Virus record (IMG/VR): IMGVR_UViG_3300021976_000008
Location: 25,164-89,163 of that record
DNA length: 64,000 nucleotides
Reading direction: 5' to 3' (one strand)
DNA from: a virus
Taxonomy: Duplodnaviria > Heunggongvirae > Uroviricota > Caudoviricetes
This document shows positions 12,103-64,000 of the stretch, in pieces (positions within the stretch are counted from its first letter, which is position 1; each line of letters starts with the position of its first letter). The position numbers were made by a program, and so were the translations under genes. The notes under the pieces are model-generated. The model did not search any database. It worked only from the letters and a program-made list of their open reading frames with translations, and had not been told where the DNA came from.

Positions 12103-12746
12103 GCATCTCCGTCGTCGTGCCGAGCATCCCGCCTCGGGTCGAGCAGCGCGCCGATATCCAAAGGCAGATCGAAGCGCAGACGCGTCCACCAGATGAGCTG
12201 ATCGTTTGGATAGACGAGGTTGGTGCAGGAGCCGCGGTTACTCGCAACATCGGAATGGCACAGGCCAGCTCTGAGTTCATCGCCTTCTTTGATGACGACG
12301 ACGAGATGTACCCCAATCATCTCGAACTGCTCGAACGCACGCAGCGGAGAACAAACGCCGACTTCGTCTACCCGTGGCACCACATCAGGCCCCCGATGCG
12401 CAATCCACTAGCGGTCTGCGGCGAAGATCCGTTCGGGCGACCATTCGATTACGCCGCGAGGCGACAGATCCTGCATGGCATCAACTTCATCCCGATAGCC
12501 GTGCTGGTCCGTCGCGAGCTGATGCTGAGCATCGGTGGCTTCCATGACTTCAAATTGGACGAATGGGACCCGGAGCGCTGCGAGATCCTCAACGCCTGGC
12601 AAAAGCTCCTACGAGCTGGGGCCTCCTTCGCCCACTGCCCATATAGGACGTGGGCCGCTGTGCGGAATGGCCAGAACACGGCCGGGCTCGGCTGGCGGGA
12701 ACACATCGGCACCAAGCAACGCGGCTACGACGAAGGAGACCGCTAG
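12096..12746 (+). CDS. glycosyltransferase family 2 (paralogue of previous)
   Basis: ISVVVPSIPPRV...AFFDDDDEMYPNHLE; ATGGTGA overlap. Confidence 0.75.
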   Translation: MVSISVVVPSIPPRVEQRADIQRQIEAQTRPPDELIVWIDEVGAGAAVTRNIGMAQASSEFIAFFDDDDEMYPNHLELLERTQRRTNADFVYPWHHIRPPMRNPLAVCGEDPFGRPFDYAARRQILHGINFIPIAVLVRRELMLSIGGFHDFKLDEWDPERCEILNAWQKLLRAGASFAHCPYRTWAAVRNGQNTAGLGWREHIGTKQRGYDEGDR

Positions 12747-24073: not shown

Positions 24074-24324
24074 ACGGCTGGCTCCTTGCCATGGAGACGG
24101 AGTCGGCGAACGCGATCTTCTACATCTGCGTGGCAGCCGTTGCCGTCGTCTTCATCATCTGCGCAGCGTGGGTCTTGCGGGGCTGGGGTCCTCTGCAGGG
24201 GCCAGCGGTCAAGGTGAGTGATCCGCCCATGTGGTCAGAGACGACGGTTGAGTACGGGCCAGCAGCGGCATCGAGTGCTCCCGCTGCGGACAAGACCGAA
24301 GAGGCGACAGGAGAACAGCAGTGA
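24070..24324 (+). CDS. membrane protein (84 aa)
   Basis: TM helix AIFYICVAAVAVVFIICAAWVL. Confidence 0.45.
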   Translation: MNGWLLAMETESANAIFYICVAAVAVVFIICAAWVLRGWGPLQGPAVKVSDPPMWSETTVEYGPAAASSAPAADKTEEATGEQQ

Positions 24325-24809
24325 GATCCCCCACAGTCAACGGAGACCTCGATGGGGCCGCATTTGCCGTCCAGGTTGGAGCCCGACTCCGAGCCTTGCG
24401 TAAGGCCAGGATGTGGTCGCTTCAAGACGTCGTGAACCGGCAGGCCGGTTGGAGCGCCTCGGCGATAGGAGCCTGGGAGCGAGGCTCACGCGCCATCAGC
24501 GTGCCCCTCCTCTACGAGGTCGCTGCTTTCTACGGCGTCTCTGTCTCGCTTCTACTCGGCGGCGACCGTGAACTGAAGCCGAAGCCCAAGCAACGCCGGC
24601 TGGTCTTCGATCTCGAAGCCCTGCAAAGCACTCCCGACGCTGCCATGGTCGAGCGCTTCGTCCGGACGATCATCGTCGAGCGCGGCGACTACAACGGTCG
24701 GGTCCTGACGATCCGCGACGACGACATGAACGCGATCTGCACGCTGGTCGGCGTCGAGACCCACGCCGAGGCGATCGCTCAGCTCGACAACTGGGGCGTA
24801 CTCGCGTGA
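24321..24809 (+). CDS. helix-turn-helix (XRE-like) DNA-binding protein
   Basis: LRALRKARMWSLQDVVNRQAGWSASAIGAWERG HTH; GTGA coupling. Confidence 0.55.
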   Translation: MRSPTVNGDLDGAAFAVQVGARLRALRKARMWSLQDVVNRQAGWSASAIGAWERGSRAISVPLLYEVAAFYGVSVSLLLGGDRELKPKPKQRRLVFDLEALQSTPDAAMVERFVRTIIVERGDYNGRVLTIRDDDMNAICTLVGVETHAEAIAQLDNWGVLA

Positions 24810-25059: not shown

Positions 25060-25248
25060 CCAGCGCCATCTGGCCCTAGCTTTACCCCTGTCGTCAGTAC
25101 GGCGGCAATCCATCATCAACACCAACTGAATGCCGATTCCGTAGAACACCCGCCCAGGCGGGTGTTCTACGTTTGTATCTCCGTGACTCGGAGAGCCCCG
25201 GGCGATCGTATGAACGCCAGCTCGGATGTCGTCCGGTAGACGCGGAAA

Positions 25249-25279
25249 GGCCCGGCCCTTTGGGGCCGGGCCTTTGTCG
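25249..25279. terminator. bidirectional rho-independent terminator GGCCCGGCCC-TTTG-GGGCCGGGCC with T-runs on both strands
   Basis: Perfect 10-bp stem plus flanking TTTG / TTTCC. Confidence 0.7.
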
Positions 25280-25285
25280 AGGAGA

Positions 25286-25888
25286 TCACTCCGGCGTCGG
25301 CGTCTCCGCCGGCTTGACCTGGTACAGATGCGGTGCCCGGCCGCGACCGGTGTAGTCGGGCGTCGGACCCAGCTTCTCGACCTGACCAGAGGCAACCAGC
25401 TCATCGAGGGCGCCGCGGACGGTGGCCTGGCTGCTGCCGATGGCCTCGATGACCTCGGCGAGCTGGAAGGGCTTCGTCAGGGTGAGCACGTGGGCCTTGA
25501 CCGCCTCGACCGGCACGGCCTTCGCCCGCAGACGAGCGGCACCGCCGAGCTTCGGACGAGAGACGGTGATGTCGAAGCCGGCGGCACGCAGCACCTCGGG
25601 CGGCACCTTCAGATCCGTGAACGCCTTCCACGGGACACCCGCCTCCTCACTCCATGCCTTCGCATGGGCGACGAACCCCTCACGCAGCGGTGCCTCGTCC
25701 ATGTTGGTGGCCGCGTCCAACGCAGCGAAGGCCTTCAGCTTGTCGATCGGGTCGATCGCCCCGGCGACATCCTTGGTCGCCTTCTCGACCTCGTCGGCGT
25801 CGATGAGCTGCCTCGGGTCGTCGAGATAGAGCATGTAGTTGCGGACGGCGTCCTCGGGCTTGGTCTTATCGGTGGTGGTCTTCGGCAT
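25286..25888 (-). CDS. winged-helix DNA-binding protein (200 aa), terminator-flanked stand-alone unit; candidate regulator
   Basis: C-terminal QATVRGALDELVASGQVEKL wHTH; hairpin terminators on both sides. Confidence 0.5.
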   Translation of the reverse strand: MPKTTTDKTKPEDAVRNYMLYLDDPRQLIDADEVEKATKDVAGAIDPIDKLKAFAALDAATNMDEAPLREGFVAHAKAWSEEAGVPWKAFTDLKVPPEVLRAAGFDITVSRPKLGGAARLRAKAVPVEAVKAHVLTLTKPFQLAEVIEAIGSSQATVRGALDELVASGQVEKLGPTPDYTGRGRAPHLYQVKPAETPTPE

Positions 25889-25969
25889 AGCCGGCACCCT
25901 AGCGCTTAGAGAGAAGGATGCGATGGATCATCACGAAACAGGCAAGAAAAATCCCCGTCGACGCGGAAA

Positions 25970-25993
25970 GGCCGGCTCTCATCGGAGCCGGCC
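25970..25993 (-). terminator. terminator hairpin GGCCGGCTC-loop-GAGCCGGCC followed by TTTCC on minus strand, downstream of integrase
   Basis: Stem-loop 40 bp after the integrase stop codon. Confidence 0.6.
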
Positions 25994-26033
25994 TGATCCT
26001 AAAGTCCTGGTAGATCGGCGCTTCTGCGATCTC

Positions 26034-27578
26034 CTAAGCCGCCGCTTCCCCGGTACCCGCTGGCGCATTGTCCATCGCGATGGGTGTAAGGCAGCGAGTC
26101 CCATCGCGCCCGGGGAGGTCTCGGGGGACGCTGGGGTCGTTGCGAGTCCAGATGCGGAACTCCCCGCCACGCTGGACGGCGATGACCTCGAAGGCATCGG
26201 CTAGGAACGCTCGCCTCTCTTCGATACCGAGCGTCTCCCAGATCTCGCTGAGGTTCACGGGCAGAGCAACGCCGAGCACGGCGTTGCGAGCTTCAGCGAC
26301 AGCCTCGCGAGCTTCCATTACCCGAGCCAGACGAGCCTGTTGCCCGTCCTCGACCCAGGACTTGCCCAGAACCCGCCCCATTTCGATCGTGCTGTCCGAG
26401 ACGAGGAACTCCCTCAGCTCTGCCTCTGCGGTCTCCTGCTCCAACAGCGCGGCTTCTAGGGCGTCTGTGGACACCTCGCCACGAGCGAAGCGATCGCAGC
26501 ACGGACCGAGGAACTTGGTCCTGAAGACCTCCTCGACCGCTGCCTCGATGACGTCAGCTCGGATACGGGCCGGCGCCGGGCACTTGCCGAACGTGTGGTT
26601 GCGGCGGCAGTCGTAGTAGCGGTAGTGGCCGTAGGCGTTCTTGGTGCCGACGCCGCGCATGGTGACACCGCAGCCGGTGCAGCGGATGATGCTGGTGAGC
26701 TTGTACGTGGCCTCGTCGTTCCGCAGGACGTTCCGGTTGTGAGCGTTGGCTCGCTGCCACAGATCGAGCGACACGATGCCCTTGTGGGCGTTGAGGTTCA
26801 CGAACTCACCCGAGGTGATCTCGCCGAGGTAGACGCGAGACTGGACGAGGCGGCGCACACTGTTGATCCCCCAGAGGCCGCCTTCTCTAGTCCGGATGCC
26901 CCCTTCGTTGAGCCAGTCGGCGATCTTGGCCCAGGCCATTGGCCCGGTAGTGCCGTCGGGTCGGGGAGCTTCGGCTCGCCGCTCGAACATGCCGACGACC
27001 CAGTCCTCCTCGTCGGGGACGGACACCAAGCGACGCGTTCCGATGAGCTTGCCGTTCGGACCGGGCACGCCGTCCTTGCGGTAGCCGTAGGGCTCGGCTG
27101 TGTGGACACCGTTGGCGACGCGGCGCCGGGTGACGTCCTCCCAGCCCTTGGTGACGGACTTGAGGTACCACTCAGCCATCCACAGCAGCACGGCCAGGAT
27201 CAACTGCGACAACTCGCTACCGTCGCCGTAGATGCCGTCCTTGACGGCGATGAACACCTTGCCGTTGTTCTCCAACTCGCGCACGGCCAGGAGACCACCG
27301 ATCATGTCGCGAGCGAGGCGATCGACCTTCATGACGATGATCCCGTCGGCCTCGTCAGCAAGAACCCCAGCGACGGCTTTCTGAAGCTCCTTGCGCTCGA
27401 CCGTCTTGCCCGAGACCGAGTCGGACTCATCGAACCAGTGCACGATGCGGTGGCCGTTGGCCTTGGCCCAGGCCTCGCAGGAATCGACCTGCTCGAAGGG
27501 CGAGTGGTACGAACCGTTGTCCGAATCCGAGCGGTTGTTGTCTCGGGAGACACGCTTGATGCCGAAGAGGTCAGCCAT
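26034..27578 (-). CDS. int: large serine recombinase (phage integrase, resolvase catalytic domain + recombinase domain + zinc ribbon/coiled coil)
   Basis: N-terminal resolvase motifs with catalytic Ser (VSRDNNRSDS...), RLARD, long C-terminal recombinase domain with Cys cluster CTGCGV..C. Confidence 0.9.
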   Translation of the reverse strand: MADLFGIKRVSRDNNRSDSDNGSYHSPFEQVDSCEAWAKANGHRIVHWFDESDSVSGKTVERKELQKAVAGVLADEADGIIVMKVDRLARDMIGGLLAVRELENNGKVFIAVKDGIYGDGSELSQLILAVLLWMAEWYLKSVTKGWEDVTRRRVANGVHTAEPYGYRKDGVPGPNGKLIGTRRLVSVPDEEDWVVGMFERRAEAPRPDGTTGPMAWAKIADWLNEGGIRTREGGLWGINSVRRLVQSRVYLGEITSGEFVNLNAHKGIVSLDLWQRANAHNRNVLRNDEATYKLTSIIRCTGCGVTMRGVGTKNAYGHYRYYDCRRNHTFGKCPAPARIRADVIEAAVEEVFRTKFLGPCCDRFARGEVSTDALEAALLEQETAEAELREFLVSDSTIEMGRVLGKSWVEDGQQARLARVMEAREAVAEARNAVLGVALPVNLSEIWETLGIEERRAFLADAFEVIAVQRGGEFRIWTRNDPSVPRDLPGRDGTRCLTPIAMDNAPAGTGEAAA

Positions 27579-27808
27579 CAGCGGACTTCCATGAACTCGG
27601 CAATGCCTTCGACCGCCTGGGACTTGGTCTTCCAGTAGTGCCCGCATTCGCATGACACCGAGGCGAACCCGCCAGCTTCAGCGAGGGCCTCGCCCATGAT
27701 CATCTCGCCGGTCTCCTCATCGATCGAGACGTCCTGCACGAGGACGCCTCGACGGATTACGCGGAAGGTGAGTGAGCCGCAGCTGGTCGGGCAGTAGAGA
27801 CGGCGCAT
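27578..27808 (-). CDS. zinc-ribbon protein (76 aa) translationally coupled to integrase
   Basis: CPTSC...CECGHYW; TGATG overlap with int start. Confidence 0.5.
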   Translation of the reverse strand: MRRLYCPTSCGSLTFRVIRRGVLVQDVSIDEETGEMIMGEALAEAGGFASVSCECGHYWKTKSQAVEGIAEFMEVR

Positions 27809-28185
27809 CACTTGGCCTTCCTCAGACTCATCCGCAGAGCGTCGACGGTGATCGGGGCGACGTAACCATGCGGGCTGCGAACGTGCTGCTTGTAGCAGCC
27901 GGCATCTTCGACCCACACCGGAGAGCCGACGACCTCGTACTCGCCGATCGGGTCGCTGAACTTCGATCCGACCGGCACGCCGTTGACCTCTGGCTGCTCG
28001 GGCAGCGTGATCTTGGCCGGAGCCCATTCGGCGCTGGCCAGCTCGACTCCGCCGATGTCGGTGGAGAGCCGGTGTCGCAGATCCTCGGTGAACGTGTCGA
28101 TGATGTCGGCGGCGAGATCCTCGGGGTCGGTCAGGGCCGGGTCAAGGTCGTCAGAGACCTTGACCCGGATGATCAGCTCGGCCAT
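27808..28185 (-). CDS. hypothetical acidic protein (125 aa)
   Basis: Coupled ORF in the int operon. Confidence 0.5.
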   Translation of the reverse strand: MAELIIRVKVSDDLDPALTDPEDLAADIIDTFTEDLRHRLSTDIGGVELASAEWAPAKITLPEQPEVNGVPVGSKFSDPIGEYEVVGSPVWVEDAGCYKQHVRSPHGYVAPITVDALRMSLRKAK

Positions 28186-28352
28186 CAGGCCACCATCCCG
28201 TTGTTCAGGTCGTCGTCCATCGTGCGACCTTTGGCCTCGTACCAGGCCTGCACCTGCGCCCGAGACGCGAGTCCCAGGCGGCCGTAGAAGGCGTTGATCT
28301 GTCGTCGGGTGTCGTCGTCCACCTCGACGGTGTAGCTCACTCGTACTCGCAT
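28185..28352 (-). CDS. small protein (55 aa), ribbon-helix-helix-like N-terminus (low confidence)
   Basis: MRVRVSYTVEVDDDTRRQINAFYGRLGL; coupled ORF below the 60-aa ORF-track cutoff. Confidence 0.35.
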   Translation of the reverse strand: MRVRVSYTVEVDDDTRRQINAFYGRLGLASRAQVQAWYEAKGRTMDDDLNNGMVA

Positions 28353-28573
28353 CACTCAGCCGCCTTGTGCTTGTGCGTGTTGAACTCGTCGTCCGCCTCT
28401 GCCCGGCTCACCGCTTGAGCGGGGAAATCGTCGCACTCCTCGCAGTGGACGTCGTAGGCGGTGTGCTTCGACTCGCCGACCACTCGGCCGTACCGCTCGA
28501 TCTCGTAGGTGACCTCCGTCTCTACGAGCTGCAACGGCCCGTTCTCCTCGATGACGTGGCTCGTGATGGACAT
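28352..28573 (-). CDS. hypothetical protein (73 aa)
   Basis: ATGA coupling. Confidence 0.45.
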   Translation of the reverse strand: MSITSHVIEENGPLQLVETEVTYEIERYGRVVGESKHTAYDVHCEECDDFPAQAVSRAEADDEFNTHKHKAAE

Positions 28574-28881
28574 CAGGTGTTCTCCTTCAGGTTGTCGTAG
28601 CCAATTCGGACAGCGTGCTTGCCCCACTGCTCATCGAGCAGTATCAACAAGCTGCGGCCAGTCTCGGTCAGGTGGCTCACGTGCTCACCCTCACCGATCT
28701 GGACCTTCTCGACGCATCCCCAGCGACGCAAGGTCGCCAGGCACGTGCGCATGCCCCTGGCCTCCGAAAAGGGGGTCGTGGGGCCGGAGAGTTTCAGATC
28801 GAGGGATAGGCACGTGAGCACCTTGTGATGACCGCTGAGCGACCGAGCTGCCATCTGCTTGAGCGTCGGGGCTGCTGCCAT
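28573..28881 (-). CDS. winged-helix transcriptional regulator (102 aa), first gene of the integrase operon
   Basis: LATLRRWGCVEKVQIGEGEHVSHLTETGRSLL wHTH pattern. Confidence 0.5.
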   Translation of the reverse strand: MAAAPTLKQMAARSLSGHHKVLTCLSLDLKLSGPTTPFSEARGMRTCLATLRRWGCVEKVQIGEGEHVSHLTETGRSLLILLDEQWGKHAVRIGYDNLKENT

Positions 28882-28898
28882 AACCGCAGCGTACAGCT

Positions 28899-28948
28899 AG
28901 TTGTACCAAGTTGACATCCCCCAACGGCAGCGAGAACTTGGTACAACT
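28899..28948. promoter_or_regulatory. 50-bp element with perfect 14-bp terminal inverted repeats (AGTTGTACCAAGTT-22 bp-AACTTGGTACAACT): candidate serine-integrase attP or operator
   Basis: Read directly from sequence; 18 bp upstream of the int-operon start; contains TTGACA. Confidence 0.4.
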
Positions 28949-28987
28949 ACTCTGACCAGGAGGTTCAGGGGAAACGGGTGACGGATG

Positions 28988-29305
28988 TCATGATCGTGAG
29001 GGCCGTCGTCGTTCCTGCAAGTCAGTCTCATCGTCGCTGTCGCCAGGAACCAGTCCTATCGCCACCCACACCTTGCGAGCGCAGGATTGGCACACGACGA
29101 CCATCTCCGGATCAGCGGCCATCTCACGAACGAGTTCGTCGTCCTCGACCTCGGCGCCACACTGGTGGCAGGCGAAGTCACTCACGAGAACCTCCGACGG
29201 CTGGCCCGGCTCGCCGCACCAGTGACACGCCGACTCGGGCCAGTGAGCGCAGTGGTCGCAAGGGGGGATGGCCAAGCGGCCCGGCTCTACGACGGTCACA
29301 CTCAT
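28988..29305 (-). CDS. zinc-finger protein (106 aa, three CxxC pairs, acidic tail)
   Basis: CDHCAHW..CHWCGE..CHQCGA..CQSCA. Confidence 0.45.
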   Translation of the reverse strand: MSVTVVEPGRLAIPPCDHCAHWPESACHWCGEPGQPSEVLVSDFACHQCGAEVEDDELVREMAADPEMVVVCQSCARKVWVAIGLVPGDSDDETDLQERRRPSRS

Positions 29306-29334
29306 GAGCGTACTACTTGTCCGGGAACGAGGGC

Positions 29335-29359
29335 GGCCCCCGGCCGAGAGCCGGGGGCC
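29335..29359. terminator. GC-rich stem-loop GGCCCCCGGC-CGAGA-GCCGGGGGCC (no U-tract)
   Basis: Perfect 10-bp stem between convergent/tandem leftward units. Confidence 0.4.
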
Positions 29360-29571
29360 GCAGCGTGAGTCACGCAGAGCGCGACCGCACATGTTTGGCG
29401 GGAGAGACACTACTCGAAGGGTCGCCCGTCAACAAACATGCGAGCATCGGAGCTGGCTACTGATTCATGGGTTCTGATGGCGGACCGGCCGAGGATCTCC
29501 CTCGGCACCACAACACCAGCTCCGACGCTGGCAATGATCCTAGTCGTCCTCGATGTCGCGGGGAGCCGCAT

Positions 29572-29847
29572 TCAGCTCGACCACTGCTGCTTGACGGATG
29601 CGACGAGAGCGAACACTTCGGCGATGCGGCGGACCCGACGAATGGCAGAGTGATAGGTGAATGCACTGCCACGCGCGTCGAAGGGTCCCACAGCGACGCG
29701 ATAGTGGTACCGGAGCCTCTTGTGGGTGATCGTCATGATGAGTGGATAGCGGATCGCATTCGACTCATCGAAGACCTCGGTCTGGCTACTCACTCGCCTG
29801 CCTCCGTCGAGAGAATGGGTCATTCCGCAGGATTGGGACGACGACAA
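29572..29847 (-). CDS. hypothetical protein (91 aa), weak
   Basis: ORF at the end of the leftward island; composition only moderately protein-like. Confidence 0.3.
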   Translation of the reverse strand: MSSSQSCGMTHSLDGGRRVSSQTEVFDESNAIRYPLIMTITHKRLRYHYRVAVGPFDARGSAFTYHSAIRRVRRIAEVFALVASVKQQWSS

Positions 29848-29892
29848 CCACGCCCGCTACACCGAGGCCCATCGAGGCGAGGAGGAGGGCGA

Positions 29893-30513
29893 TCATGCGA
29901 TGACCGGATATCTCTGCTTGAAGAACTCCTCGACTTCACCTCGACGCCAAGCCGGACCCATGGCCAGGACAAGGGCCGGCTCAGGGAAGCCAGACTCCTT
30001 GGAAAGCTGGTTCGCTCGCTGCCTGCTGAACCCACGCATCTCACCGATCTCCGCGAGGCCGACGAAATCCGGGATCTCGATGCCCTCCCGGCGGTAGCCG
30101 GCCAGCTCGAACTCGGCCTCAACCTCCACGCTGTCGGGTAGCGCTGACAGCTCATCCAGGTCTTGCTCGTAGAGCCAGATCAGGAAGGGCTCGAACAGCG
30201 GACACACCCAGATGCGGTGCTTGCTGAGGTCGTGGCTAGCATCACCGCCCGGAAAGAAGGCGGCGCCTTCCTGGGTCTGAAGGTCGAACACGATGATGTG
30301 ATTCAAGCCCCAGCCGATCTGCGCCAGCAGAGAGCGATCGGCGATGTGCTCGGGTTCCCAGCCAAGCATCGCCAGTATCTCCGGAGCGGCCTCTACCTCA
30401 CACCCCGGAGTCGCGGCCGATCGCTTCCACTCGACGTCGGGGTGCATCACCATGAACTTGCCCCAGTTCTGAGGGACACCCGGTTGCACGGCCTCAATGA
30501 TCTTGGTTTGCAT
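29893..30513 (-). CDS. protein with C-terminal AlpA/excisionase-type HTH_17 domain (206 aa)
   Basis: C-terminus LAEIGEMRGFSRQRANQLSKESGFPEPALVL..WRRGEVEEF resembles HTH_17. Confidence 0.5.
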   Translation of the reverse strand: MQTKIIEAVQPGVPQNWGKFMVMHPDVEWKRSAATPGCEVEAAPEILAMLGWEPEHIADRSLLAQIGWGLNHIIVFDLQTQEGAAFFPGGDASHDLSKHRIWVCPLFEPFLIWLYEQDLDELSALPDSVEVEAEFELAGYRREGIEIPDFVGLAEIGEMRGFSRQRANQLSKESGFPEPALVLAMGPAWRRGEVEEFFKQRYPVIA

Positions 30514-32721: not shown

Positions 32722-32795
32722 TAGCGATGACGGGACTTGAACCCGCGACATCACGCGCCAGAGGCGTGCGCTCATACCAACTGAGCTACATCACA
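32722..32795 (-). tRNA. tRNA with anticodon CUG (Gln) on minus strand
   Basis: Hand-folded cloverleaf: D-arm GCTC/GAGC, anticodon stem CACGC/GCGTG loop CTCTGGC, T-arm GCGGG-TTCAAGT-CCCGT, 7-bp acceptor with one T-T mismatch at 1:72; no CCA encoded. Confidence 0.65.
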
Positions 32796-37009: not shown

Positions 37010-37475
37010 CGGGTCGTGACCTCCCGTTAGGTCCGACTCGCCCCGGGCGCTGTGCGATCGGCGCCTGGGGCACTATGCAACTTTGCAGGGTCGAGCGTAC
37101 CGCTTGTTACGTCATCAAGCAACAGCTTCCTTGGACGCGAGACAGCCCGCCGCGGGGACGAGGCGGGCTGTCTCTGGGGGAGTGGTTATGGCCGGAAGGC
37201 AAACCCCCGGTGTCCTGCCGGAGTGTCGCGCCCCGCCACCGCCCCAACCCCAACCGGGCCTCGACAGTAGCCAGGTTGTTGCCGTGATGGTCTATCACGG
37301 CGTCGGATGGGGATCAAGGGGCTGTGGCGAGGAGACCGCAGCGCCTCCCCGCCACAAACCCCAACGGCGAGCACGGGGGCTGGCGGTAACTCCCGTCGCT
37401 CACGCGTCACCCATGCTAACGCTCTGACCGCTCCTCGTCCAACGGCTTGATACGTCATCACACGCCGAGTGAGAC

Positions 37476-37495: not shown

Positions 37496-37780
37496 ATGAC
37501 CAGCAAGGCGACGTCCATGCTCCGGGCTCTCACCCCGCCAGCAGCAGCCGGCGATGATGTCGCTCTCAAGCTGAGGGACCGCATGTCGATGGCCCTCGAC
37601 GCCGGGATGGACCCCGACGAGGTGGCCGACGCCGTCCTCGACCAGCTCTTCCATCATCTCGACCACAGCGACTGCGAGTACCACCGCACCGCTCTGCTCA
37701 TGTGGAAGGGGCTCGTGAACTGGGGCATCACCGACGCGTACCTGTACATCAACGATCCAACGAACCATGGGAACACGTAG
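37496..37780 (+). CDS. hypothetical protein (94 aa)
   Basis: ATG 5 nt after an operator-like site. Confidence 0.45.
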   Translation: MTSKATSMLRALTPPAAAGDDVALKLRDRMSMALDAGMDPDEVADAVLDQLFHHLDHSDCEYHRTALLMWKGLVNWGITDAYLYINDPTNHGNT

Positions 37781-63750: not shown

Positions 63751-64000
63751 CGCGGTAGAGTGACAGAGTTGTCATTTGTTAAGGTAATGAACAAACTCGC
63801 CCCGCCGGCCAGCTATCCACCCTCATGCATAAGTACGCATAGCGAGCGCTATGCTGACTGCGCATACCCCCACCCCGTATACCGATCTAGGGTCACATAC
63901 CCCCGTAGGGTATGGGTGGAGAGGCGAGCCTAGATGCTAATACCCTGGTCAGAGGGTATGGGGCCGCGAAAGGTTGCGGGGTACCCCCACCCCGTAAGGC

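Follow-up and report, generated by a model that had tools for sequence, protein, structure and literature searches.

The closest described counterparts of the locus reported here are the attP sites of large serine integrases. Those of A118/LI, Bxb1 and phiC31 are 40-50 bp long and, as at our locus, consist of two inverted half-sites around a non-palindromic central dinucleotide (PMC3783163). A dimer of the integrase contacts 50 bp of attP. In each half-site, positions 1-12 lie under the recombinase domain, and the zinc-ribbon domain recognizes a 9-bp stretch (positions 16-24) in which positions 18-19 tolerate substitution; the crossover dinucleotide is non-palindromic (Rutherford et al., PMC3783163). 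Symmetry in the known sites is strongest in the outer part, which the zinc-ribbon domain reads, and weaker in the inner part, a gradient that the element described below resembles (PMC3783163). Known sites also lie near the int gene and do not need accessory sites, which is a further likeness. The attP of phiC31 also has perfect outer repeats (CCCCAACTG and CAGTTGGGG) and a TT crossover. Another counterpart is res site I of Tn3 and gamma-delta, where a serine recombinase crosses over within the promoter region of its own gene and so represses its own transcription.

In the 64,000-nt stretch of phage DNA analyzed here (the window), we found a 52-bp inverted-repeat element composed of two inverted 26-bp half-sites around a non-palindromic TT (Table 1). 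This layout, with strong outer and weak inner symmetry, is why we regard the element as the probable attP of a large serine integrase (514 aa), placed within the promoter of the operon that encodes the enzyme. The sequence-only reading of this DNA had described a 50-bp element at 28899-28948 with 14-bp arms, located 18 bp upstream of the integrase operon. The place is confirmed, but the arms are 15 nt each. The element does lie upstream of the operon, since all genes around it are on the minus strand, but the gap to the ATG at 28881 is 16 nt. The arms are 100% complementary to each other across a 22-nt spacer, occupy positions 12-26 from the center on each side (center CCGT/TGGG, with TT at the dyad), and have a G+C content of 33% compared with 62% for the surrounding sequence. 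Over the inner 22 bp of the window copy, symmetry is weak (3 of 11 positions). When the window was simulated 200 times under a first-order Markov model, a perfect inverted repeat of at least 15 nt (spacer 10-40 nt) appeared in a single simulation. When arms of at least 12 nt are counted, the window holds three perfect inverted repeats against 0.26 expected, and the element is the longest. The 64-kb window contains no further copy of the arm with up to 3 mismatches allowed, and there is no other inverted-repeat candidate beside int. That this is the sole such element near the integrase operon, as previously proposed, is borne out: the other two noncoding stretches beside int are intrinsic terminators and a probable leaderless promoter.

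Table 1. Coordinates of the element, its operon and adjoining genes in the window
Feature	Position	Strand	Remarks
Conserved upstream flank, CCTGGTCAGAG	28950-28960	-	Operon strand; adjoins distal arm on outer side
Distal arm	28935-28949	-	Operon strand TAGTTGTACCAAGTT; + strand AACTTGGTACAACTA
Asymmetric spacer, 22 nt	28913-28934	-	Operon strand CTCGCTGCCGT/TGGGGGATGTC
Near-invariant core, CCGTTGGG(GG)	28918-28927		+ strand coordinates
Proposed crossover dinucleotide, TT	28923-28924		
Proximal arm	28898-28912	-	Operon strand AACTTGGTACAACTA; + strand TAGTTGTACCAAGTT
-10-like hexamer, TACGCT (TAnnnT)	28888-28893	-	6 nt before ATG
First operon gene, 102 aa, orphan	28573-28881	-	ATG at 28881
Four small operon genes	28352-28573, 28185-28352, 27808-28185, 27578-27808	-	Contig gene calls, translations
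Large serine recombinase (integrase), 514 aa	26034-27578	-	Final operon gene
Intrinsic terminator after int	25970-25993	-	Hairpin GGCCGGCTC...GAGCCGGCC, then TTTCCGCGTC; closes operon
200-aa gene downstream of int	25286-25888		Same terminator type after it
105-aa protein, four CxxC motifs, weak zinc-ribbon matches	28988-29305	-	Upstream of element

Some other features of the window were recorded along the way. A perfect TTGACA on the + strand (28911-28916) spans the arm/spacer junction within the element; it was rejected as a + strand promoter, having neither an acceptable -10 nor a credible + strand gene downstream. Partial symmetry of the flanks outside the arms was not significant and was dropped. 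The exact flank 11-mer recurs once in the window, at 63944, in an unrelated palindrome (ATACCCTGGTCAGAGGGTAT) within the last stretch of the window (63860-64000), where repeated CATACCCCC(A)CCCCGTA-like motifs are clustered. At 37139-37174, a perfect 13-nt inverted repeat (GAGACAGCCCGCC, 10-nt spacer) adjoins the divergent junction of a minus-strand and a + strand block of genes, the latter beginning at 37496.

The element is followed by six tightly packed genes whose stops and starts abut or overlap, and the last of these is the integrase, 1.3 kb away in the same operon. The integrase carries Resolvase (PF00239), Recombinase (PF07508) and Zn_ribbon_recom (PF13408) domains in Pfam and matches the PHROG 95 integrase family (E=3e-73), while its N-terminal domain matches chains of the TP901-1 integrase and of gamma-delta/Tn3 resolvases. 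Its best identity to any integrase in 50,697 phage records is 29%. A megablast of positions 26000-30500 against the same records gave no match, and sensitive blastn of the element returned chance matches only. Two of the small operon proteins have counterparts in relatives: L005 encodes the 55-aa protein at 85% identity, and both L004 and L005 show partial conservation of the 125-aa protein. Phage genes run along the whole window, including those for a tail protein, exonucleases, a primase/polymerase and an FtsK/SpoIIIE-like protein. The window matches part of an 89-kb metagenomic contig at 100% identity and lacks close relatives among cultured phages. This source contig begins at window position 12466 and may be a circular permutation. 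Upstream of the element, the minus-strand 105-aa zinc-ribbon reading frame looks like the real gene, and the antisense + strand call of the source contig (29087-29368) does not.

Around the operon, the terminator after int is also present in seven relatives, where its stems vary with compensation and its tail is conserved. The type is common to this phage group: a G+C-rich hairpin with compensated stem variation and a conserved tail, TTTC(C)GCGTC, occurs on the minus strand at 25240-25275 and 25970-25993 in the window and at the same positions in L003, L004, L005, L026, L031 and L032. Immediately past the int stop codon is a conserved GAGATC(G/A)CAGAAGCGC. The start of the 200-aa gene (25889-25910, minus strand) reads TAGGGT-N7-ATG, lacks a ribosome-binding site and is kept in relatives; it is a second probable leaderless promoter. 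Judged by eye only, the C-terminus of the 200-aa product is similar to a winged helix. A gene on the + strand (24321-24809) that converges with the integrase module, and that is conserved in L003 and L032, encodes an XRE-type helix-turn-helix protein with a BldD-like C-terminal domain. This protein is a candidate immunity repressor and points to an actinobacterial host.

We collected metagenomic integrase homologues that are 33-62% identical to the window's enzyme, fetched their contigs, and scanned collections with patterns from the first matches. The same architecture was found in 11 other lineages (L002, L004, L005, L007, L013, L026/L027, L031, L032, L033, L062 and L063). In these relatives the element heads an operon that ends in the integrase, with one to about ten genes between. 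A gap-free alignment of the elements on the operon strand runs flank, 15-nt arm, 22-nt spacer, arm, 15-16 nt containing TAnnnT, and ATG. The flank, with the consensus CC(T/A)GGTCA(G/C)AG, is identical or carries one or two changes (CCAGGTCACAG) in nine of the ten full-length relatives and is absent in L013. The core CCGTTGGG is invariant across nine aligned sequences, with CCGTTCGGG in L062 and CTATTGGG in L063. Symmetry of the inner part is 3-7 of 11 positions over the window and relatives. TT-centered inverted half-sites are present in the window and in every relative with a full element; in L002 there is the proximal half only. Both L062 and L063 were added by two profile searches of viral contigs with the integrase alignments. 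The former (integrase 40% identical) has 19-nt arms, an 18-nt spacer and the center CCGT/TCGGG, followed by TACCAT-N7-ATG. The latter (33% identical) keeps the arms and center and lacks a clear -10 hexamer. For more distant integrases (25-32% identical), viral-contig profile searches gave no recognizable element, and the window's own arms had no match when viral contigs were scanned with the exact pattern.

The outer spacer is variable, even among phages with an identical integrase. Four contigs from four sequencing runs (L026, L027, L028 and L029, element centers at 172, 3922, 2483 and 1299) share an identical integrase and about 650 nt that are identical except for two dinucleotide differences: CA or GC at -7/-6 left of the center, and, within the first gene some 75 nt downstream, TG or GA. 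Each of the four possible combinations is represented.

The sequence-only reading had offered an alternative, namely that the element is an autoregulatory operator of the winged-helix protein encoded by the first gene of the operon. Position is what recommends it, as the site is directly upstream of this gene and overlaps its promoter. A single-sequence AlphaFold2 model of the 102-aa protein has an H-H-H-E-E topology, compatible at low confidence with a winged helix, and the protein may have that fold; with a mean pLDDT of 55, however, the fold is not reliable. The protein has no Pfam or PHROG family, and a homologue search in 5.8 billion proteins returned the protein itself alone. Such an orphan does not suit an element found in 11 other lineages, where the first genes belong to four other unrelated families. 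Across the window and relatives, these five families do not follow the arm type. For example, L004 (family A) and L031/L032 (family B) have one arm type and integrases that are 76-79% identical, but their first genes differ; L013 (family B) and L033 (family C) likewise have a common arm type and integrase clade with different first genes. Since the protein lacks homologues and the arms are dissociated from the five families of first genes, we reject this alternative and leave it next to no weight.

Arm sequences differ greatly between phages, with changes on both sides at 13 of the 15 positions, and 87% of arm cells are Watson-Crick paired, compared with 63.5% in shuffles (0 of 500 reach 87%) and 33-44% when the partner arm is slid. 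For example, L004 has GTCGTACCATTCG and CGAATGGTACGAC where L031 has GTCGTACTATTCG and CGAATAGTACGAC. Mismatches in relatives fall at positions 16-20 and, in several, also at the outermost positions 25-26. Among unpaired cells, G-U accounts for 3 of 17, which is no excess. Judged from these substitutions, the symmetry of the arms is under selection, and concerted change with no G-U excess indicates that it is kept at the DNA level.

The same observations bear on whether the repeat could work as a hairpin (15-bp stem, 22-nt loop) in RNA or single-stranded DNA, for instance as a processing site or as a terminator of read-through coming from the upstream zinc-ribbon gene. Folding is predicted (-45.2 kcal/mol for 121 nt, z = -2.8), the two sides of the stem covary, and no terminator lies between the element and that upstream gene. 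A stem kept for pairing in RNA fits poorly with the G-U count, however, and the mismatches of relatives are mid-stem. The stem is also AT-rich and has no T-run, in contrast to the terminators of this phage group, which are a GC hairpin followed by TTTCCGCGTC, and the most conserved part of the element is the center of what would be the loop. Rfam gave no match at E<=1, the element is not among the terminators called by the scan, and transcription is predicted to start downstream of it. We consider a hairpin function very unlikely.

Arm types cluster with integrase clades (Spearman 0.39, p=0.018, with non-independent pairs); there are about four arm types and few independent contrasts, and the association could partly reflect linkage. 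With the first genes not following arm type, the comparison indicates that the arms' partner is the integrase and not the neighboring gene.

In 11 of 12 lineages, a hexamer TA(C/A/T)(G/C)CT is followed by 6-7 nt and then ATG, although the downstream genes are unrelated. No Shine-Dalgarno sequence is present within the 16 nt between the proximal arm and the ATG, and a consensus sigma-70 scan called no promoter at the element. Actinobacterial promoters have TAnnnT about 7 nt ahead of a leaderless start. Given this knowledge and the TAnnnT spacing, the operon transcript is probably leaderless and starts at or beside A28881. The element thus probably overlaps a conserved leaderless promoter of the int operon, the proximal arm spanning -17 to -31 relative to the ATG. 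The overlap was absent from the sequence-only reading.

This arrangement would also suit a promoter operator for a dedicated transcription factor, neither the integrase nor the winged-helix-like protein, with no recombination site involved; two 15-bp sites, their centers 37 bp apart, would then flank the -35 region. The proximal arm sits at a fixed place in the conserved TAnnnT-ATG promoter, and the element is always at the operon promoter and not directly beside int, whatever the number of intervening genes. The conserved 11-nt flank lies outside the 52 bp. Nearby candidate regulators are the BldD-like/XRE protein and the 200-aa protein. However, the BldD-like gene was seen only in the window, L003 and L032, and the 200-aa gene is missing beside int in L002 and L033, so that the integrase is the only DNA-binding gene common to all carriers. 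The arm motif is single-copy in the window, unlike typical immunity operators, and a near-invariant asymmetric center between variable arms 37 bp apart is unlike the operators of dimeric helix-turn-helix proteins. With the arms clustering by integrase clade, we consider a dedicated operator unlikely.

The proposal that the element is attP, already made in the sequence-only reading, is thus partly supported. In its favor are the architecture conserved by related integrases, the near-invariant asymmetric center, the covariation of the arms and their clustering with integrase clades. The marked symmetry of the outer part (positions 12-26), broken in relatives at 16-20 and at its far ends, resembles the description of the LI attP (PMC3783163). 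The element is intact and phage genes are found throughout the window, as expected of attP in a non-integrated genome. However, the attP reading falls short of proof, since our scans yielded neither an attB nor an attL or attR junction. An attR-compatible pattern (TTGGG...GTAMGCTGSGGWTATG) run against 185,579 species genomes, JGI metagenomes and viral collections returned intact elements and chance matches, with no junction. A scan of viral contigs for the distal half gave 29 matches; besides the known L007 and L008 these were due to chance, and several lay in tRNA genes. What had been named as a rival place for attP, a "tRNA fragment" at 32.9 kb, turns out to be a complete tRNA-Gln (anticodon CTG) gene, at 32722-32795 on the minus strand; it sits within the minus-strand block. 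The attP model also leaves two features unexplained: the flank CCTGGTCAGAG, and the conservation of the 9-10 central bp across integrases that are 33-62% identical. These could reflect a shared attB core, a conserved specificity of the recombinase domain, or an added regulatory role.

A single hint of recombination comes from one contig. The 46.5-kb Logan contig of L002 begins with CCCCGTTGGGGGG, 6 nt from the dyad, and carries the proximal half only; the chance of a contig starting at such a position is about 3 in 10,000. This start could be an assembly-graph branch at the crossover core, a polymorphism, or a physical DNA end. Since L026-L029 differ from one another at exactly these positions (-7/-6), the break could also be due to a simple variant bubble. 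A physical end would be in keeping with some other twofold-symmetric DNA-processing site, either cos with a 12-nt overhang (CCCCGTTGGGGG) on the dyad or a resolution site of an extrachromosomal prophage. The conserved, G+C-rich center and the primase/polymerase-like and FtsK/SpoIIIE-like proteins of this phage are consistent with such a role, as is the exact place at which the L002 contig starts. However, the other eleven lineages hold an intact element inside their contigs, so that a contig ends at the site in 1 of 12. The scan of the window proteins identified no terminase, either near the element or elsewhere, and the element co-occurs with the integrase and promoter in every lineage. As for resolution, recombination between two identical sites is not known for large serine integrases (PMC3783163). 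We give sites of this kind little credence.

If the element is attP, as we favor, an integrase dimer would bind the two 26-bp half-sites, with zinc-ribbon domains and linkers reading the 15-nt arms (positions 12-26) and recombinase domains reading the inner, more conserved positions. The distal arm would form the outer part of the P half-site and the proximal arm that of P'. After synapsis with a host attB, both strands would be cut at the central TT and exchanged. In the resulting prophage, one end would carry the int operon with its promoter and the proximal half-site, and the other end the distal half-site. The predicted attB has the core CCGTTGGG with the zinc-ribbon-domain motif of the arm (TGGTACAAC in the window) placed 5 bp further inward; for the window this gives GTTGTACCA-N20-TGGTACAAC, with TT central.

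The overlap with the promoter gives this mechanism a possible second side. The proximal half-site covers about -17 to -42 of the promoter, so integrase binding there would probably hinder RNA polymerase and repress the integrase's own operon, and after integration host DNA would take the place of all sequence upstream of about -43. We tentatively suggest, as a possibility with the odds against it, that attP doubles as the operator of the int operon: the integrase would repress its own leaderless promoter from the proximal half-site, in the manner of Tn3 resolvase at res, integration would alter int-operon expression in the lysogen, and the center CCGTTGGG would mark a shared, conserved attB in uncultured actinobacterial hosts.

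The element is of an expected, ordinary kind, and its interest is modest; it belongs to a lineage of phages and integrases that has no cultured representative. If confirmed, it would provide a ready-made attP for an uncharacterized clade of large serine integrases (at most 29% identical to those of cultured phages). With the relatives, there are a dozen natural pairs of integrase and predicted attP, and their arms differ coordinately. Sets of this kind help to work out how DNA is read by the zinc-ribbon and recombinase domains, and can serve genome engineering as orthogonal tools. Because site and promoter overlap in a fixed way, the element would also be a simple natural example of recombination coupled to integrase expression.

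Compared with known attP sites, the element differs first in its enzyme, which is at most 29% identical to cultured-phage integrases, and in its position: it heads a six-gene operon, lies 1.3 kb away from int and abuts a conserved promoter of leaderless type. In the window copy the perfect arms are unusually long (15 nt) and inner symmetry is almost absent, its 3 of 11 positions being below several characterized attP sites. A center of 9-10 bp conserved across integrases that are only 33-62% identical is a further difference. The crossover site lying over a promoter recalls res site I of Tn3 and gamma-delta, and the N-terminal domain of the integrase matches these resolvases. However, res consists of three subsites and resolution takes place between identical sites, whereas the element is a single site tied to a large serine recombinase, and autoregulation is here proposed from its position. 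The loxP site of phage P1, the target of Cre, also has perfect inverted arms and an asymmetric spacer that gives direction, and its form resembles the element; yet loxP is 34 bp (13+8+13), is used by a tyrosine recombinase and recombines with an identical partner, whereas the 52-bp element is associated with a serine integrase. Finally, phage repressor operators, like the element, place an inverted repeat over the -35/-10 region of a promoter. They are usually palindromes of 14-20 bp, often in multiple copies and tied to a conserved regulator gene, whereas the element is present in one copy, its half-site centers are 37 bp apart, and the integrase is the only conserved regulator candidate.
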